Shown one piece after another: positions 1,418 to 51,941 of a DNA stretch of 52,071 bases. The stretch is from positions 1 through 52,071 of the forward strand of contig CAYTBZ010000005.1 in the NCBI GenBank assembly GCA_964436275.1, written 5' to 3'. The notes beneath the pieces are model-generated. The model had not been told where the DNA came from and searched no databases. It saw nothing but the letters and a program-made list of their open reading frames with translations. The translations under genes were made by a program, and so were the position numbers. Positions within the stretch are counted from its first letter, which is position 1. Each line of letters opens with the position of its first letter. Origin of the DNA: an uncultured Gammaproteobacteria bacterium (GTDB lineage: Bacteria; Patescibacteriota; Patescibacteriia; UBA2591; CAYTBZ01).

Positions 1418-2443
1418 ATGATTATTTTAGGCATTGAAACATCTTGCGACGAAACCTCTGCCTCTTTAATTGAAATAAAAAGAGGAGAATTTAAAATTCT
1501 AAAAAACATTGTTGCTTCCCAAATTAAAACTTTTCAAAAATATGGAGGAGTAATTCCAGAATTGTCCGCTCGAGAACATTTAAAAAAAATCATTCCGGTT
1601 ATTAAAAAAGCCCTTCCTTCACAAGGAAAAAAAATTGATTATTTAGCAGTTACCCAAGGACCTGGACTTATGACTTCTCTGTTAATCGGATTAGAAACAG
1701 CCAGAGCCCTGGCTTATCTTTGGAAAATTCCTCTTTTAGGTATCAACCATTTAGAAGGACATATTTATGCCAATTGGTTTAAGAAAAGAAAAATAAATTT
1801 TCCTTTAGTTGCCCTAATTGTTTCTGGGGGTCATACAGAAATTGTTTTAATGAAAGAGCATGGAAAATACAAAAAAATAGGACAAACTTTAGACGACGCT
1901 GCTGGCGAATGCTTTGACAAAGCAGCGAAAATGCTTAACCTCGGCTATCCCGGTGGTCCGATAATTGAGAAATTAGCCCAAAGAGGAAACAATCATTGTT
2001 ATAAATTCCCCCGACCGATGATTAAAAGCAAAGATTTCAATTTTAGTTTTTCTGGACTAAAAACATCGCTCCTTTATTTTCTAAAAAACAATTTTAAGAA
2101 AAAAAATAAACTTGAAAAAGAATTACCCAACATCTGCGCCAGTTTCCAACAAGCAATTATTGATGTCCTTGTTGAAAAAACTCTAAGGGCAGTTCAAAAA
2201 TTCCAAGTTAAAACTCTTTTATTAGCCGGAGGTGTAGCAGCCAATCAAGCATTAAGAAAAAATTTTCAAAATAAAATAGAAAAAAGAGAAATGGAATTAG
2301 AATTCATTTATCCAGATTTAAAATTTTGTACAGATAATGCGGCAATGATTGCTCTAGCCGGATACTTTCACATTTTAAAGAAAAAAATAACGCCTTTAGA
2401 CAAAATAAAAGTTAATCCTCAATTAGAGATAGGTAATGAATAA
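1418..2443 (+). CDS. tsaD: tRNA N6-adenosine threonylcarbamoyltransferase TsaD
   Basis: ILGIETSCDET, NHLEGH, LIVSGGHT, DDAAGECFDK and CTDNAAMI motifs. Confidence 0.97.
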   Translation: MIILGIETSCDETSASLIEIKRGEFKILKNIVASQIKTFQKYGGVIPELSAREHLKKIIPVIKKALPSQGKKIDYLAVTQGPGLMTSLLIGLETARALAYLWKIPLLGINHLEGHIYANWFKKRKINFPLVALIVSGGHTEIVLMKEHGKYKKIGQTLDDAAGECFDKAAKMLNLGYPGGPIIEKLAQRGNNHCYKFPRPMIKSKDFNFSFSGLKTSLLYFLKNNFKKKNKLEKELPNICASFQQAIIDVLVEKTLRAVQKFQVKTLLLAGGVAANQALRKNFQNKIEKREMELEFIYPDLKFCTDNAAMIALAGYFHILKKKITPLDKIKVNPQLEIGNE

Positions 2444-2870
2444 AAAGAAAATAATCACTAAAAACCAAAAACAAACCCTCAATTTAGGGAAAAGTTTTGC
2501 TCAAAGATTGAAAGGAGGAGAAGTTGTTGCTTTATATGGTCAATTAGGAACAGGAAAAACAACTTTTATCAAAGGTATTGGCCAAGGATTAAAAGTAAGA
2601 CAAACGATTACCAGTCCTTCTTTTATTTTAATGAAAATATACCCAATCAGAAAAAAAAGAATTAAATATCTCATCCATTTAGATGCTTATCGGATTAAAA
2701 AAGTTGAAGAACTATCTGATTTAAATGTTTTTGATTATTTTAATCAGCCAGATTCTGTTTGTCTTATTGAATGGGCCGACCGTATAGAAAAAATTTTACC
2801 AAAAGAAAGGATTAATATATATTTTGACTATGGGAAAAAAGAAAATGAAAGAATAATCATTTTCCAATAA
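2436..2870 (+). CDS. tsaE: tRNA threonylcarbamoyladenosine biosynthesis ATPase TsaE
   Basis: LYGQLGTGKTT P-loop, TSPSF, HLDAYR and IEWAD motifs; overlaps the tsaD stop. Confidence 0.96.
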   Translation: MNKKKIITKNQKQTLNLGKSFAQRLKGGEVVALYGQLGTGKTTFIKGIGQGLKVRQTITSPSFILMKIYPIRKKRIKYLIHLDAYRIKKVEELSDLNVFDYFNQPDSVCLIEWADRIEKILPKERINIYFDYGKKENERIIIFQ

Positions 2871-2923
2871 AAACTATTTATTTATCTGTTTAATTTTGCT
2901 AAGATAAAATACTTTAATAAACT

Positions 2924-5314
2924 ATGAGTGAATTAAGTAAAACATATCAAGCAAAAGAAGTTGAAAAAGAAATTTACCAACTTTGGGAAAAGTCGGGCTG
3001 TTTTCATGCGAAAATAAATACAAAGAAAAAACCATTCACAGTAATGATACCCCCGCCTAATATCACTGGCTCTTTACATATGGGTCATGCTTTAAATAAT
3101 ACTATCCAAGATATTCTTGTTCGTTATCATCGGATGAAAGGAGACATTACTCTCTGGTTGCCGGGAATTGATCACGCAGGCATAGCCACACAAAATGTAG
3201 TTGAGAAATTGCTTAGAAAAGAAGGAATAAGCAAAGAACAACTTGGACGAGATAAATTTGTTAAAAGAGTTTGGCAATGGAAAGAAAAATACGGAGAAAT
3301 TATTTTAGAACAATTAAAGAAACTTGGCTGCTCTTGTGATTGGAAACGTCAAAGGTTTACTTTAGATAAAAATTATTCTCAAGCAGTCAAAACTGCCTTC
3401 ATCCACTATTATCAGAAAGGATACCTCTATCGCGGTCCACGAATAGTCAATTGGTGTCCCCGATGTCAAACGGCTATTTCTGATATTGAAGTGAAATATC
3501 AACCAGAAAAAACAAAACTCTATACTTTTAGATATGAAAAAAATTTTCCTTTGGCTATTTCTACTACCAGACCAGAGACAAAATTAGGAGACACGGCTGT
3601 TGCTGTTAATCCTAAAGATAAAAGATATAAAAAATATGTTGGCAAAAAATATTCAGTTAACTTTTTAGGAGTAAAATTAGAAATTAAAATTATTGCTGAT
3701 GAAAAAGTTGACCCTCAATTTGGCACTGGCGCAGTTGGCGTTACCCCGGCTCATAGTCAAATTGACTTTGAACTTGCCCAGAAGCATCATCTTAAAATTA
3801 TCAATGTTATCAATGAACAAGCAAGAATGACTGAAAAAGCCGGCCCTTTTAAAAACCTAACCGTTCAAGAAGCAAGAAAAAAAATTATTGAAGAATTAAA
3901 AAAGAAAAATCTTTTAGAAAAAGTAGAAGATTATGAACATTCTCTTTCGCTTTGTGACCGTTGTGGAACGCCAATTGAACCACTAATCTCTGAACAATGG
4001 TTTGTTAAAATGAAAGATTTGGCTAAACCGGCAATAGAAGTAGTTAAAAAGGGTAAAATAAAATTTATTCCTTCAAGATATAAAAAAATCTATCTTGAAT
4101 GGATGAAGAATATCAAGGACTGGTGTATTTCTCGTCAATTATGGTGGGGGCATCAAATGCCTGTTTATTACTGCGAGAAATGTGATAGAAAACATCAAAA
4201 GCCAATAGTCCAGAAAGAAAAGCCAAAAAAATGTCCTTACTGCGGCTCAGACAAAATTGTCCAAGAAGAAGATGTTTTAGACACTTGGTTCTCTTCTGCT
4301 CTTTGGCCCTTTGCTACTTTGGGTTGGCCCCAAAAAACTAAAGACCTTGCTTATTTTTATCCGACTAGTTTTTTAAGCACTGCTCCAGGCATTATTTATC
4401 TTTGGGTGGCACGAATGATTATTTCTGGTTTAGAGTTTATGAAAAAAATCCCCTTCCCCCTTGTCTATCTCCACGGAACAGTTCTGACTAAGGAAGGGAA
4501 AAGAATGAGTAAATCATTAGGCACAGGAGTTGACCCCTTAAAAATGATAGAGAAATACGGAGCAGACGCCACTCGCTTTGGCATTATTTACCAAGCGCCG
4601 CGTGATTCTCAGGCAATTCGTTTTTCTGAAGAAGCATTAATTTCTAGTCAAAAATTTATTAATAAAATTTGGAATATTGCTCGCTTTATCACTTTAAAAG
4701 AAAAAGAGGGTAGTAAAAAAAAGAAAAGAAAAACTTTGTCTGAAAGATGGATTTTGAGCAGATTAAATAGGTTAATTGAAGATGTTAACCAACAAATAGA
4801 AAGTTTTCATTTCTCTCGGGCTGAACATTTGCTTTATGAATTTATCTGGCATAATTTTGCTGACTGGTATTTAGAAATCTCCAAAACAGAAAAAAATTAT
4901 TCTCTGGTAAAATCTATTTATTTAGAACTGCTTAAACTTCTTCACCCGTTTATCCCTTTTGTTACTGAAGAAATTTATCAAAAAATAAAAGCAAAAGGCA
5001 GAAAGGATATTCTAATGACTTCTCCTTGGCCAAAAGTTAAGAAAAATTTAATTAATAAAAAAGTTGAAGATGAATTTGAACTACTTAAAGAATTCATCAC
5101 TGAAATAAGAAAAACTGCTAAAGAAAAAAAGATAAAACTAAAAGAAGTAAAAACAGTTGAATTAGAAATCAATAAAAAAAGTAAACTTTTCCCCTTAATT
5201 AAAAAGGAATCAACAATTATTGAGGGCTTACTCAAAATTAAATTAAAATTTTCTCCCAATATTCCTTCTCCTTTAACAAAAATAAATAATTTAAAAATAA
5301 ATTTTATTAATTAA
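2924..5314 (+). CDS. valS: Valine--tRNA ligase
   Basis: PPPNITGSLHMGH (HIGH-like), DWCISRQLWWGH, DVLDTWFSS and RMSKS (KMSKS-like) motifs; C-terminal coiled-coil arm shortened. Confidence 0.97.
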   Translation: MSELSKTYQAKEVEKEIYQLWEKSGCFHAKINTKKKPFTVMIPPPNITGSLHMGHALNNTIQDILVRYHRMKGDITLWLPGIDHAGIATQNVVEKLLRKEGISKEQLGRDKFVKRVWQWKEKYGEIILEQLKKLGCSCDWKRQRFTLDKNYSQAVKTAFIHYYQKGYLYRGPRIVNWCPRCQTAISDIEVKYQPEKTKLYTFRYEKNFPLAISTTRPETKLGDTAVAVNPKDKRYKKYVGKKYSVNFLGVKLEIKIIADEKVDPQFGTGAVGVTPAHSQIDFELAQKHHLKIINVINEQARMTEKAGPFKNLTVQEARKKIIEELKKKNLLEKVEDYEHSLSLCDRCGTPIEPLISEQWFVKMKDLAKPAIEVVKKGKIKFIPSRYKKIYLEWMKNIKDWCISRQLWWGHQMPVYYCEKCDRKHQKPIVQKEKPKKCPYCGSDKIVQEEDVLDTWFSSALWPFATLGWPQKTKDLAYFYPTSFLSTAPGIIYLWVARMIISGLEFMKKIPFPLVYLHGTVLTKEGKRMSKSLGTGVDPLKMIEKYGADATRFGIIYQAPRDSQAIRFSEEALISSQKFINKIWNIARFITLKEKEGSKKKKRKTLSERWILSRLNRLIEDVNQQIESFHFSRAEHLLYEFIWHNFADWYLEISKTEKNYSLVKSIYLELLKLLHPFIPFVTEEIYQKIKAKGRKDILMTSPWPKVKKNLINKKVEDEFELLKEFITEIRKTAKEKKIKLKEVKTVELEINKKSKLFPLIKKESTIIEGLLKIKLKFSPNIPSPLTKINNLKINFIN

Positions 5315-35258: not shown

Positions 35259-35645
35259 TTATTTTGCTCCAATAGCTTTAAAAATAAAACTTAAAATAGC
35301 ATAACTGCTGAAAATTACTAAAATACCAATACTTGCCCAGACCAAGGTGTCTCTTCCTTTTTTAATGGCTGTAGAACTTCCTCCAGAAGTCATCCAAACT
35401 AAACCACCATAAATAAACATTATTAAAGCAATTGCTCCAATAATCCCTAAAAAAATCTTAATACCCCTACCAATTAAACTAACTGGGTCAGTTTCACTAA
35501 TAGGACTTTCTAAAGTTACTGTGTAGTTGCTGTTCAAATCATCGCTAGCCATCCAAGCGCTGTTTCTTCCGCTAGTTAAAAAGATACTTGCCAGCAGTAA
35601 AAAAACAAAGAAAAATAGAATTATTTTAAATTTTTTTTCTCCCAT
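35259..35645 (-). CDS. TrbC/VirB2-like pilin
   Basis: GGLVWMTSGGSSTAIKKGRDTLVWASIGI motif. Confidence 0.85.
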   Translation of the reverse strand: MGEKKFKIILFFFVFLLLASIFLTSGRNSAWMASDDLNSNYTVTLESPISETDPVSLIGRGIKIFLGIIGAIALIMFIYGGLVWMTSGGSSTAIKKGRDTLVWASIGILVIFSSYAILSFIFKAIGAK

Positions 35646-35655
35646 TTTTTAAAAA

Positions 35656-36348
35656 TTAAGAACCCTCTTCTTCTGGAGAACAAAAATCTACTCTTTTTAT
35701 TGCATTCTTACACTCTTCCTTCTCACTCCTTTCTTCTACCCATCCCCCCTCGCAGAGTGTTCCTGCCTCTCTCATTTGCCTCAAAGTATCCTTACAATTA
35801 GCTTCTGAAAAACGTGCTTCCCCTCCTAAACATTTACACTCTCTACTACAAGAATCGCCATCTTTTACCCGAACCACACAAAATCCATCTTTCTCAACTA
35901 CTTTTGCCTTCTTTTTTAAACGCGTATAACCTGGTTTAATTCCAACTGCTGTTTCAATAAAATAAACAATCAACCAAGCAGTCATTACTATTATAAGCCC
36001 AGTTAAAGTTCCAATCAAGATGTCTTTACCTTTTTTTACCCGGCTCTGACTACCCCCAGAAGTCAAGAACATAAACCCGCCAACAATAAAATAAACTAAA
36101 GCCAAAGCACCAACAATACCTAAAATAATTTTTGAAAGATTGATAAAAAGCAAAAGAAAATCCTCCAAAGTACAATCGCCAGTAGCAGCACAATCAGGAA
36201 CAATCTTCCCTAATCCTGAACTAGCAGCAAAACTAAAAAAGAAAGGAAATAAGAAAAAGAAAGAAAAAAGAGAAAAGAAAAAGAAAGTAAAAAATAATTT
36301 TCTCTTTTTATCTGCTTTAATATGTTTGATTAACTCGTTCCACAGCAT
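35656..36348 (-). CDS. TrbC/VirB2-like pilin with Cys-rich C-terminal extension
   Basis: GGFMFLTSGGSQSRVKKGKDILIGTLTGL core; 8 Cys in the C-terminal tail; start position uncertain. Confidence 0.8.
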   Translation of the reverse strand: MLWNELIKHIKADKKRKLFFTFFFFSLFSFFFLFPFFFSFAASSGLGKIVPDCAATGDCTLEDFLLLFINLSKIILGIVGALALVYFIVGGFMFLTSGGSQSRVKKGKDILIGTLTGLIIVMTAWLIVYFIETAVGIKPGYTRLKKKAKVVEKDGFCVVRVKDGDSCSRECKCLGGEARFSEANCKDTLRQMREAGTLCEGGWVEERSEKEECKNAIKRVDFCSPEEEGS

Positions 36349-38742: not shown

Positions 38743-39217
38743 AGAAAATTCTCGCTTTGTGTTTCCTGATTGTTTTTTCCTTACCCCAAATTACCAACTA
38801 CAAATTACCAATTACTGCAAATTTGAGCGTTAGCGAAAATTTGCTGGCAAACTAATTTTGTAATTTGTGTGAGTAATTTGTAATTTGGGAGCAAATTTTC
38901 ATAGAATGAAAATTTGCTGGCGGTGGGAGGAGGATTCGCCCCGCCTTTGGCGGGGCGTCCTGTCGAATGACAGGACGAACCTATTTCAGTTGTAATTTGT
39001 GTGTGTAATTTGTAGTTTGGGCAGAAAATTCTCGCTTTGTGTTTCTTGATTGTTTTCTTCTTACCCAAATTACAAATTACCAATTACTAATTACTGAAAA
39101 TTCGAGCGAAGCGAGAATTTTCTGGCAAACTTAATTTTGTAATTTGTGTGAGTAATTTGTAATTTGGGAGCAAATTTTCATAGAATGAAAATTTGCTGGC
39201 GGTGGGAGGAGGATTCG
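38743..39217. repeat. Tandem ~195-bp units (38743-38938 and 39023-39217) containing the tRNA-Ser 3' end plus downstream sequence
   Basis: 86 bp identical at 38853-38938 and 39132-39217; the remainder is similar; internal inverted repeats and AATTTGT/ACAAATT heptamer runs. Confidence 0.92.
38918..38982 (-). pseudogene. tRNA-Ser 3' fragment with T-loop interrupted by two palindromes
   Basis: Minus strand AGGTT-CG-[TCCTGTCATTCGACAGGA]-CG-[CCCCGCCAAAGGCGGGG]-CG-AATCCTCCTCCCACCGCCA, compared with AGGTTCGAATCCTCCTCCCACCGCCA in the intact tRNA. Confidence 0.8.
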
Positions 39218-39289
39218 AACCTCCGGTCCCGCCAAAGGCGGGACAGCGCTTTTCGAGAGCGCCCCGTTCAACCACTCCGGCATCCCACC
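39197..39289 (-). tRNA. tRNA-Ser(CGA)
   Basis: GCGCT-CTCGAAA-AGCGC anticodon arm, long variable arm GTCCCGCC-TTT-GGCGGGAC, T-loop GGTTCGAATCC, encoded CCA. Confidence 0.95.
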
Positions 39290-42862: not shown

Positions 42863-42880
42863 TTTAATTATTAAATAAAG

Positions 42881-42944
42881 GCAATCACCGGCAGACAGGT
42901 AGGCAATGAATTTTTTCATGGCCTAAAGCCTGCCGAGTGATTGC
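42881..42944 (+). promoter_or_regulatory. Long stem-loop in the pnp leader
   Basis: Nested pairings GCAATCAC/GTGATTGC, CGGCAG/CTGCCG, TAGGC/GCCTA and ATGAA/TTCAT. Confidence 0.65.
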
Positions 42945-42963
42945 TAAAGGATTTCAGAACAAT

Positions 42964-50720: not shown

Positions 50721-51650
50721 ATGAAAAAAATTCAAAAATTAATACAAGAGTTTTTAGAATATTTAGAAATAGAAAAAAATAGAAGCAGAGCTACTATTAG
50801 AAATTATCAATTTTATTTAGAAAGATTTGTCAATTGGGCTAAAATAACTGCTCCAGAGAAAATTAACTTAGAATTAGTCAGAAAATATCGCCTTTGGTTA
50901 AATCGTCTTAAGGTAAAAAAAGACCAAACACTTAAAAAAAGCACTCAGAATTATCATCTAATAGCGCTGCGCTCCTTTTTAAAATATCTTAGCAAAAGAG
51001 ATATAGAAAGTTTGGCTCCAGAAAAAATAGAATTAGCTAAAATGCCTGAGCGTTCGGTAGAATTCTTAGAAGGAAAAGACCTAGAAAACTTATTAAACGC
51101 TCCCTTAAAAACTGAAGAGCCAGAAATTATAAAAATGAGAGATAAGGCAATTTTAGAACTTTTCTTTTCAACTGGCTTACGGGTTTCCGAACTTTGCCAA
51201 TTGACTAAAGAGCAAGTAAATTTAAAAAAGGATGAATTTACTGTAAGAGGAAAGGGAGATAAACCAAGAATTGTTTTTCTTTCCAATCAAGCAAAATTCT
51301 GGTTAAAAAAATATTTAGATTTACGAGAAGATATTGAGCCGTTTCTCTTTATCCGCCATGACCGCGCTGCTTTAAGAAATAAATCTTTGCTAAAATCTAA
51401 TCTAACTCCCCGGTCTGTACAAAGAATTATTAAAAAATATGCTAAAATAGCCGGCATACCCAAAAAAATTACCCCTCACACCTTAAGACATAGTTTTGCT
51501 ACTGACCTATTAAATAATGGAGCGGACATTCGCTCTGTTCAAGCCCTTTTAGGTCATTCTTCCATCACCACAACTCAAATTTATACTCACATAACTGATA
51601 AAAAATTAAAAGAAATTTACCAGACCTATCATAATAAAAGAAAAAAATAA
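50721..51650 (+). CDS. Tyrosine recombinase XerC/XerD family
   Basis: RDKAILELFFSTGLRVSEL, VRGKGDKPRIV, HTLRHSFATDLL, LLGHSSITTTQIYTH catalytic residues. Confidence 0.93.
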   Translation: MKKIQKLIQEFLEYLEIEKNRSRATIRNYQFYLERFVNWAKITAPEKINLELVRKYRLWLNRLKVKKDQTLKKSTQNYHLIALRSFLKYLSKRDIESLAPEKIELAKMPERSVEFLEGKDLENLLNAPLKTEEPEIIKMRDKAILELFFSTGLRVSELCQLTKEQVNLKKDEFTVRGKGDKPRIVFLSNQAKFWLKKYLDLREDIEPFLFIRHDRAALRNKSLLKSNLTPRSVQRIIKKYAKIAGIPKKITPHTLRHSFATDLLNNGADIRSVQALLGHSSITTTQIYTHITDKKLKEIYQTYHNKRKK

Positions 51651-51722
51651 GCCCTCGTAGTTCAATGGATAGAACAGGGGACTCCTAAGCCTCTGATGCA
51701 GGTTCGATTCCTGCCGAGGGCA
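51651..51722 (+). tRNA. tRNA-Arg(CCT)
   Basis: GCCCTCG/CGAGGGC acceptor stem, CT-CCT-AA loop, GGTTCGATTCC T-loop; CCA not encoded. Confidence 0.92.
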
Positions 51723-51747
51723 CTAAAAAATTCTCCTTATATTATTA

Positions 51748-51818
51748 GGGCTTATAGTACAATGGCAGTACGCCGCATTCGCATTGCGGAGATGCGGGTT
51801 CGATTCCCGCTAAGTCCA
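51748..51818 (+). tRNA. tRNA-Ala(CGC)
   Basis: GGGCTTA/TAAGTCC acceptor stem with the G3:U70 Ala identity pair; CCGCA-TTCGCAT-TGCGG anticodon arm. Confidence 0.92.
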
Positions 51819-51826
51819 TTTAATTA

Positions 51827-51855
51827 TTGACAAAAATAGAGACAAAGGATATTTT
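51827..51855 (+). promoter_or_regulatory. Promoter of tRNA-Ala(GGC)
   Basis: TTGACA (51827-51832)-N17-TATTTT (51850-51855). Confidence 0.6.
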
Positions 51856-51864
51856 AAAAATCAA

Positions 51865-51941
51865 GGGGATATAGCTCAGTTGGTTAGAGCGTCTGCATGG
51901 CATGCAGAAGGTCGTGGGTTCGAGTCCCACTATCTCCACCA
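51865..51941 (+). tRNA. tRNA-Ala(GGC)
   Basis: GGGGATA/TATCTCC acceptor stem with G3:U70, TCTGC-ATGGCAT-GCAGA anticodon arm, encoded CCA. Confidence 0.96.

Follow-up and report, generated by a model that had tools for sequence, protein, structure and literature searches.

We analyzed a 52,071-nt stretch of DNA from an uncultured bacterium (contig CAYTBZ010000005.1, assembly GCA_964436275.1; hereafter the window, meaning the stretch at its full length), in which two short GC-rich hairpins lie side by side in the T-loop of a partial tRNA-Ser gene at positions 38931-38982. This double hairpin is probably the terminal module of a cassette that invades tRNA genes and encodes a small nuclease of the GIY-YIG type, with the window copy being a relic that lacks the nuclease gene. 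In other genomes, the nuclease gene, an intact tRNA, a tRNA fragment and the double hairpin form a constant partnership, which we observed both in loci collected through the hairpins and in loci collected through the protein alone.

On the plus strand, positions 38931-38982 read AGGATT-CG-CCCCGCCTTTGGCGGGG-CG-TCCTGTCGAATGACAGGA-CG-AACCT, in a window with a G+C content of about 31% whose sequences are found in hydrothermal-vent and sediment metagenomes. Hairpin 1 (hp1, 38939-38955) is CCCCGCC-TTT-GGCGGGG, a 7-bp stem with a 3-nt loop, and hairpin 2 (hp2, 38958-38975) is TCCTGTC-GAAT-GACAGGA, a 7-bp stem with a 4-nt loop; the CG between them (38956-38957) is the dyad center of canonical doublets, and none of these three features is assigned a strand. 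A first-pass annotation, made by a model from the letters alone, had described exactly this arrangement of two different, CG-bounded, 7-bp-stem hairpins at one T-loop CG, and the sequence bears it out. The insertion point is the loop CG, with CG on both sides: GGATTCG/.../CGAACCT in the fragment corresponds to GGATTCGAACCT in the intact gene. The annotation had further read a duplication of the CG into this arrangement. A CG does separate and flank the hairpins, but CG is self-complementary and each stem can therefore be extended to 9 bp through the flanking CGs, so that a duplicated CG is indistinguishable from one that belongs to the palindromes. The doublet folds as DNA with -19.7 kcal/mol (z = -4.8; 0 of 200 shuffles as good) and, as RNA of the tRNA-sense strand, with -34.7 kcal/mol (z = -5.5). 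Neither hairpin motif is expected to occur in the window by chance, and motif searches of the 52 kb found no further copies of either motif or of the hp2-type pattern defined below. Zero-difference unitigs over 38909-39002 were present at single-copy depth in runs X1, X2 and X5, together with a 61-nt unitig in X4, and a sister-strain contig (L211) carries the tRNA and the fragment in identical form, the odd hp1 included. Error-free unitigs in four independent runs and the copy in L211 argue for real DNA rather than an assembly artifact.

We scanned one genome per species for the hp2-type pattern CGYCCTGTC-N4-GACAGGRCG. The scan returned many chance or terminator matches in GC-rich genomes, together with about 27 loci having the architecture of the window, in which a tRNA loop reads ...TCG-(hairpin A)-CG-(hairpin B)-CGA.... 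The metagenome-assembled genomes that hold them are labeled as Patescibacteria (Parcubacteria, Falkowbacteria, Saccharibacteria), Lentisphaerae, Kiritimatiellae, Verrucomicrobiota and Gammaproteobacteria. The interrupted sequence was a tRNA fragment in all of these loci, and 23 of the 27 also contained an intact tRNA by ARAGORN, usually 20-400 nt from the fragment. The insert of about 40 nt followed the layout YCG-(7-bp stem, loop AT-N-C)-CG-(7-bp stem, loop G-N-AT)-CG-A and lay either in the T-loop, between G57 and A58, or in the anticodon loop, after the CG of CG-containing anticodons (Ser CGA; Arg TCG, GCG and CCG). Outside the window, hairpins were confined to tRNA fragments adjoining intact tRNAs.

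In 11 loci ascertained through the hairpins, doublet and intact tRNA are separated by 250-300 nt that encode a protein of 85-100 aa, consisting of the GIY-YIG catalytic domain and nothing more (Pfam PF01541, E = 1e-16). Identity to the protein of locus L007 was 58-71% across phyla (alignment A1), with one divergent second copy at 35%. The closest solved structures were the UPF0213 proteins EF2693 and BH0048 (1YWL and 1ZG2; E ~1e-11), followed by SLX1, and a profile search gave at least 7,976 90%-identity clusters in the nuclease family, all of the 85-100 aa size. A 2006 phylogenomic survey of GIY-YIG domains described minimal stand-alone Slx1-like domains and does not mention tRNA genes or hairpins (PMC1564403). 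The associated nuclease matches this minimal stand-alone UPF0213/Slx1-like group, its protein family being that of the UPF0213 (YhbQ-like) and prokaryotic Slx1-like proteins. No relatives of the nuclease were found in IMG/VR, and phage and plasmid records gave matches only below 46% identity. Clades of the nuclease largely track tRNA identity, as expected for target-specific homing lineages.

Because the first set of loci had been found through the hairpin, we sampled a second time by protein only. Six nuclease proteins were picked solely for lying on long contigs; in every case the start codon was preceded, at 15-30 nt, by a 5' tRNA fragment and doublet, and the stop was followed, at 5-70 nt, by an intact tRNA. 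A protein-pattern scan of Joint Genome Institute (JGI) metagenome contigs then yielded 80 loci, whose tRNAs were mainly Ser(CGA), Gln, other Ser, Arg and Asn. In 75 of the 80, an intact tRNA of the same orientation adjoined the nuclease gene, lying downstream of it in 68 (type I: 5' fragment with doublet, nuclease, tRNA) and upstream of it in 7 (type II: tRNA, nuclease, then GGTTCG with doublet and 3' fragment). A strict doublet stood on the side away from the tRNA in 54 of the 80 loci, with only 6-9 nt between it and the junction to the cassette interior. The left flank ended in CG in 49 of 59 doublets (TTCG in 35, CTCG in 9) and the right flank started with CG in 55 (CGAA in 37, CGAT in 10), while loop A was AT-N-C in 50 and loop B was G-N-AT in 48; the reverse order, G-N-AT then AT-N-C, occurred in none of the 59. 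Because the AT-N-C to G-N-AT order held in at least 48 of the 59 and was never reversed, the doublet behaves as one dyad-symmetric unit. The first-pass suggestion that hairpin modules are inserted at CG dinucleotides is thus upheld by a recurrent GC-rich family with CG on both flanks and by single hairpins at other CG sites, and its proposed check, a search for copies elsewhere and for a flank bias, returned a motif that occurs once in the window and recurs widely elsewhere, with a strong bias toward CG flanks. The successive insertion events that it had envisaged are not evident, given the fixed A-then-B order.

To examine the stems we aligned 56 doublets under a two-hairpin model. Compensatory change was found at 12 of the 14 stem pairs, amounting to 122 cells, a level reached by 0 of 500 shuffles. 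A and B are two independent hairpins. A single long hairpin that pairs A with B was rejected, its covariation being no better than that of shuffles.

The copy in the window is laid out as in type II, except that an AT-rich spacer stands where the nuclease gene would be. Its intact tRNA-Ser(CGA), with encoded CCA, lies on the minus strand at 39197-39289 (ARAGORN; Rfam tRNA, 54.8 bits), flanked by a Wzy_C-family gene and a nucleoside triphosphate (NTP)-transferase gene; the T-loop TTCGAAT is uninterrupted, the corresponding T-arm sequence being AGGATTCGAACCT, and the variable arm is GTCCCGCC-TTT-GGCGGGAC. In tRNA sense, the intact gene is followed by 214 nt of AT-rich, repeat-laden, non-coding DNA, then by a 65-nt piece, and then by a second copy of the 3' flank, so that fragment and intact tRNA stand on the same strand, 214 nt apart. 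Read from 38982 down to 38918, the 65-nt piece is AGGTTCG / TCCTGTC-ATTC-GACAGGA / CG / CCCCGCC-AAA-GGCGGGG / CGAATCCTCCTCCCACCGCCA. It opens with a T-arm stub (38976-38982, minus strand, sense AGGTTCG) composed of 3 nt of the 5' T-stem strand and the 5' half of the T-loop; tRNA homology stops at this stub and no 5' tRNA part lies upstream of it. Stubs of 6-8 nt likewise occur in loci L050, L079, L080, L052, L157 and L176. The piece closes with a duplicate of the last 21 nt of tRNA-Ser (C56-A76; 38918-38938, minus strand), 100% identical to 39197-39217; this duplicate is the 'old' 3' end of the tRNA-Ser gene. The earlier claim of an interrupted T-loop therefore holds for the T arm, which is indeed interrupted, but the arm belongs to a 3' fragment (38918-38982) and not to a whole tRNA.

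Together with the intact tRNA 3' end and flank, this fragment forms part of a 279-bp direct repeat, and the duplication reaches 176 nt into the tRNA flank: the second flank copy (R', 38743-38917, minus strand), downstream of the fragment, matches the first copy at 100% identity in the proximal 93 nt and at about 88% beyond. The cassette interior (38983-39196, minus strand) contains an AT-rich repeat and a terminator-like hairpin without a GIY-YIG open reading frame (ORF). The spacer and the 92-aa and 62-aa ORFs that overlap the locus matched no Pfam family and showed no resemblance to the GIY-YIG family, an ORF check and tblastn found no GIY-YIG gene in the spacer or the 52-kb window, and Rfam returned no match at the locus beyond the intact tRNA. 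Since no GIY-YIG ORF lies between the tRNA and the doublet, we file the window copy as a nuclease-less derivative, as in L052, L010, L105 and L176. The first-pass statement that no responsible enzyme is visible agrees with the lack of any GIY-YIG or HUH gene in the 52 kb, and its candidates, an HUH/RAYT transposase or a reverse transcriptase, give way to the gene that accompanies the hairpins elsewhere, a minimal GIY-YIG nuclease.

In L211, the interior measures only about 70 nt, and an AT-rich repeat piece of about 140 nt that is present in the window is absent. The identity of the fragment in the two strains indicates that the plugged fragment is older than the strain split. The 279-bp 'tandem repeat' of the window reflects a secondary gain of this repeat piece, or its loss in L211. 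The AT-rich repeat family at 38743-38917 and 38983-39196 consists of 'palindrome + CCCAAAYTACAAATTAC-N-CACACAAATTACAA' modules and has interleaved inverted repeats; it is multi-copy, its depth in runs X1-X4 being 3-8 times the flank depth, and is joined there to other tRNA 3' ends. The same metagenomes contain a canonical doublet in another tRNA 3' end (...GGGCAGGGATTCG-CCCTGTCATCCGACAGGG-CG-...), and a variant doublet, TGGCGGTGGGCAGGGATTCG-CCCTGTCATCCGACAGGG, was seen in runs X1, X2 and X4.

Within the doublet of the window, hp2 is a canonical B-type module, with the loop G-N-AT and the stem form YCNYRYC, and is an exact fit to the doublet pattern. The other hairpin, hp1, fits a second module class, (T/C)CCGCC-N3-GGCGG(A/G), which recurs in pseudo-tRNA pieces of other cassette loci, and has its stem in common with unit 2 of L122. 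We also observed that the core of hp1 (38940-38954) and the variable arm of the intact tRNA (39228-39242, plus strand CCCGCC-AAA-GGCGGG) are exact reverse complements of each other, a match that may reflect coincidence, gene conversion or shared origin.

Cassette loci varied in several respects. Fragment and intact tRNA were identical in many loci and 70-80% identical in others, with differing sequences in L007, L048, L060, L080 and L129; identity of only 70-80% implies that the cassette tRNA came from elsewhere. Tandem arrays of the fragment-doublet-nuclease unit occur in L122, and arrays of nuclease-less units of 76-91 nt (3' end, spacer, GGTTCG, doublet) in L010 and L176; nuclease-less units like that of the window were found in L052, L010, L105, L027, L176 and L129. 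Doublets flank the intact tRNA on both sides in L131, L145, L155, L157, L176, L179 and L129. Microhomology duplications between T-loop AATCC and the hairpin A loop ATCC are present in L105 and L062. Serial invasion was seen in L060 and L129, where a second, divergent nuclease gene lies upstream. This second GIY-YIG gene (about 35% identical) lies upstream of the main cassette, at 1086-1395 in L129 and, as a tblastn match, at 2113-2394 on the minus strand in L060; the one in L129 is accompanied by other hairpins (CCAGCC..GGCTGG and TCCGCC-TTG-GGCGGA) in the D-arm of a pseudo-tRNA. Single hairpins occupy other CG sites of pseudo-tRNAs in L116, L128, L030 and L042, and one pseudo-tRNA in L116 carries four hairpins. 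Independent tRNA-Gln pseudo-copies in L116 (6540-7100) and L128 (1420-1500) have a single hairpin directly after GGGATCG (tRNA position 8); this site, which is not in a loop, is a second CG target that recurs. In the three type II loci of the hairpin-ascertained set, L050 (4290-4586), L079 and L080, the nuclease reading frame continues across GGTTCG and the doublet as far as a TGA inside hairpin B, which gives a conserved tail, GSPR(H/Q)(P/A)TGRPVE*.

Building on the observed architecture, association, target positions, covariation and cross-strain conservation, we propose a mechanism in which cleavage chemistry, homing and the role of the hairpins are conjectural. The nuclease would cut tRNA genes at YCG^R and leave the 2-nt 3' overhang typical of GIY-YIG enzymes, here CG (cf. 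SegB, discussed below). The break would be repaired from a cassette-bearing copy in a homing-like manner, with the cassette bringing a tRNA part that keeps the gene functional, so that the nuclease gene could spread while the tRNA stays functional and could be expressed from the tRNA's own promoter. The displaced tRNA piece would retain the double hairpin at the cut site, where the hairpins may either plug, and so destroy, what is left of the target or be recognized as a structure by the Slx1-like nuclease. Repeated cutting with misaligned repair might then give rise to tandem arrays and to nuclease-less mini-units such as that of the window.

Several observations weigh against the interpretation of the window feature as a relic of such a cassette. 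In the absence of a GIY-YIG gene from the 52-kb window, its membership is argued from architecture, and hp1 is atypical, with a TTT 3-nt loop and a CCCCGCC stem in place of the canonical A loop AT-N-C, although the CG spacer is present. In run X1, depth over hp1 was about 12 compared with about 11 in single-copy flanks, which gives no indication of a hairpin-free allele; we observed neither cleavage nor homing nor an empty-site/filled-site pair. About 20 of the 80 nuclease loci are without a strict doublet. The correlation of nuclease clades with tRNA identity may partly mirror host phylogeny, an uncontrolled confounder since the contigs come without taxonomy. The doublets aligned for covariation had been preselected for near-perfect stems, which inflates the percentage paired, so that the compensatory pattern alone is informative. 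Finally, the reconstituted tRNA keeps the same loop sequence, which leaves a simple 'immunity' role of the plug incomplete; the arrays suggest that the reconstituted tRNA is cut again.

A more far-reaching version of this interpretation, which we regard as doubtful, holds that the minimal Slx1-like GIY-YIG protein and the double hairpin make up a new class of bacterial mobile element. The protein would recognize the stem-loop or cruciform, cut the CG of the tRNA loop and insert the hairpin doublet together with the nuclease gene, the insertion itself creating the long duplication of part of the target tRNA. Such an element would follow neither classical homing nor known transposition and would be among the commonest selfish elements of Patescibacteria.

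Alternatively, the hairpins could be autonomous selfish modules, comparable to mitochondrial double-hairpin elements or GC clusters, that exploit CG breaks, whether made by the GIY-YIG nuclease or of any other kind, that play no role in cassette mobility and that pile up in dead tRNA pieces since insertions into live tRNAs are lethal. Single hairpins elsewhere in pseudo-tRNAs, the several unrelated stem classes, the four hairpins of the L116 pseudo-tRNA and the doublets without a nearby nuclease gene (L052, L105, L027 and the window) are all in keeping with this idea. Random colonization would, however, be expected to produce variable positions and orders, whereas the doublet marks the cassette boundary in 54 of the 80 protein-ascertained loci, in a constant A-then-B order and at 6-9 nt from the junction; the hairpins also occur nowhere else in the 52-kb window. 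We therefore consider autonomous modules unlikely.

An action of the doublet mainly at the RNA level, either in protecting or processing a nuclease mRNA co-transcribed with the tRNA or in marking the tRNA fragment for decay, is compatible with a cassette origin. Nuclease gene and tRNA always share an orientation, with the gene lying within the tRNA transcription unit. Type I doublets fall in the 5' untranslated region and type II doublets at the 3' end, where three ORFs end at the TGA in hairpin B, and the RNA fold is very stable. No RNA-seq run containing the window locus was found. As the main function of the doublet this is quite improbable, as it leaves unexplained both the exact position at the loop CG of the fragment and the retention of nuclease-less copies.

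Two further explanations invoke other enzymes, and both are very improbable. The first is a miniature element of the REP/REPIN or IS200/IS605 type, which an HUH (RAYT/TnpA) transposase encoded elsewhere would mobilize in the form of single-stranded hairpin DNA. REP/REPIN-RAYT systems and IS200/IS605 miniature derivatives also have inverted pairs of short hairpins and covarying stems, and the doublets, which resemble a REPIN, insert at a short specific target with no long duplication. Elements of both kinds are nonetheless dispersed in intergenic copies and depend on an HUH transposase, neither of which was seen for the doublets: no HUH gene was found in the window or beside any of more than 110 loci, a GIY-YIG gene being adjacent in most of them, and copies are confined to tRNA fragments, with one site in 52 kb.

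The second is an attR-type remnant of an integrase insertion into the tRNA-Ser T-loop that has since been mostly deleted, with the hairpins being a secondary, unrelated insertion or serving as arm sites. Integrases classically leave a 3' tRNA fragment that starts in the T arm and follows an intact tRNA (10.1101/2022.07.05.498093), and the window does contain, at about 51.3-51.6 kb, a tyrosine-recombinase-like ORF. Of this ORF we see the C-terminal end (HTLRHSFAT...GH...Y motif), followed directly by tRNA-Arg(CCT), tRNA-Ala(CGC) and tRNA-Ala(GGC), the whole spanning about 51300-51941. The spacer, however, is only 70-214 nt (214 in the window, about 70 in L211), non-coding and without an integrase, the sole gene between the repeats in relatives is the 85-100 aa nuclease, the upstream 5' fragments of type I and the insertions at anticodon-loop CGs are not integrase-like, and the duplication runs 176 nt into the flank rather than being limited to the tRNA segment. 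The cassettes in general differ from integrase attL/attR fragments in having no recombinase, an insert of 0.1-0.4 kb, a fragment that can be the 5' or the 3' part and a 40-nt double palindrome at a loop CG. An archaeal-type tRNA intron (bulge-helix-bulge) in the T-loop was rejected, as complete exons on both sides are missing, and so was a doublet made as a replicated hairpin-capped end or by fold-back synthesis, because the right flank is true tRNA sequence (AATCC...) rather than the inverted left flank and the A and B stems usually differ.

We classify the system as a probable free-standing homing-endonuclease cassette with partial target duplication and hairpin elements, of which the window feature is a degenerate member. 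Among known systems, it resembles SegB of phage T4, whose small GIY-YIG gene is likewise embedded among tRNA genes; SegB cuts tRNA-gene DNA, leaves mostly 2-nt 3' overhangs and promotes its own inheritance and that of the adjoining tRNA region (PMC2330249), and is also capable of driving segmental amplification (PMC13096335). SegB differs, however, in its additional DNA-binding region, its phage-borne location and the lack of a partial tRNA duplication or a hairpin doublet, whereas the cassette nuclease is chromosomal and has only the catalytic domain, which is of the UPF0213/Slx1 branch. The hairpins themselves recall organellar double-hairpin elements (DHEs), GC clusters and repetitive hairpin-forming elements, which are short GC-rich mobile modules in AT-rich genomes, single or in tandem, with stems kept by compensatory change (PMC2800124). 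We liken them to three mitochondrial kinds, the Allomyces DHEs, the yeast GC clusters and the GC-rich palindromes that flank tRNA genes in Neurospora. In Allomyces, DHEs lie near the borders of an insertion of an endonuclease plus gene fragment in atp6. The mitochondrial elements are nevertheless organellar, are not known to have sequence in common with hairpins of the window type and have neither a defined CG or tRNA-loop target nor a constant GIY-YIG/tRNA partner, while the host of the window is bacterial, as its genes for PNPase, S15 and type IV secretion system (T4SS) pilins indicate. Judged by analogy, the resemblance is one of function and not of family membership.

The searchable literature, which does not cover subscription journals, yielded no description of a bacterial GIY-YIG/tRNA/double-hairpin cassette; the hairpin and double-hairpin elements described there are organellar only (PMC2800124). 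It names only two sources of prokaryotic tRNA gene fragments, genetic-element integration and CRISPR-Cas activity (10.1101/2022.07.05.498093). If our interpretation is correct, the cassettes would be a third source besides integrases and CRISPR acquisition, which matters as tRNA gene fragments are frequent annotation errors. It would also give a testable role to the large UPF0213/stand-alone GIY-YIG family, known from structural-genomics structures, which in the sampled loci appears to behave as a selfish, tRNA-gene-targeting nuclease. The system would be a bacterial counterpart of the mitochondrial double-hairpin elements, and as it offers a candidate enzyme as well as a defined target (YCG^R in tRNA loops), the mobility of such hairpins could be tested directly. 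It bears on the genome dynamics of ultra-small bacteria, in which tRNA genes are single-copy, and a small nuclease with specificity for structured DNA or for a loop CG could have practical interest.

Some minor observations concern the surroundings of these loci. The first-pass annotation had pointed to a GC-rich fragment in the pnp leader (CCGGCAGACAGG, at 42888) as a relative of the hairpins, but this fragment is part of an unrelated pnp-leader hairpin. The hairpin that contains it, a long imperfect one reading GCAATCACCGGCAG...CTGCCGAGTGATTGC, stands at 42878-42945 directly upstream of the PNPase gene and is likely the pnp leader stem. In L127, a large serine recombinase gene (Resolvase/Recombinase/Zn_ribbon_recom; 1865-3315) directly follows the cassette-bearing tRNA-Gln and is absent from the otherwise identical L126, so that two different elements use the same tRNA gene. 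At 35259-36348 of the window, two adjoining paralogous T4SS_pilin (PF18895) genes lie downstream of a solute-binding-protein gene, an arrangement that is the same in the sister strain.

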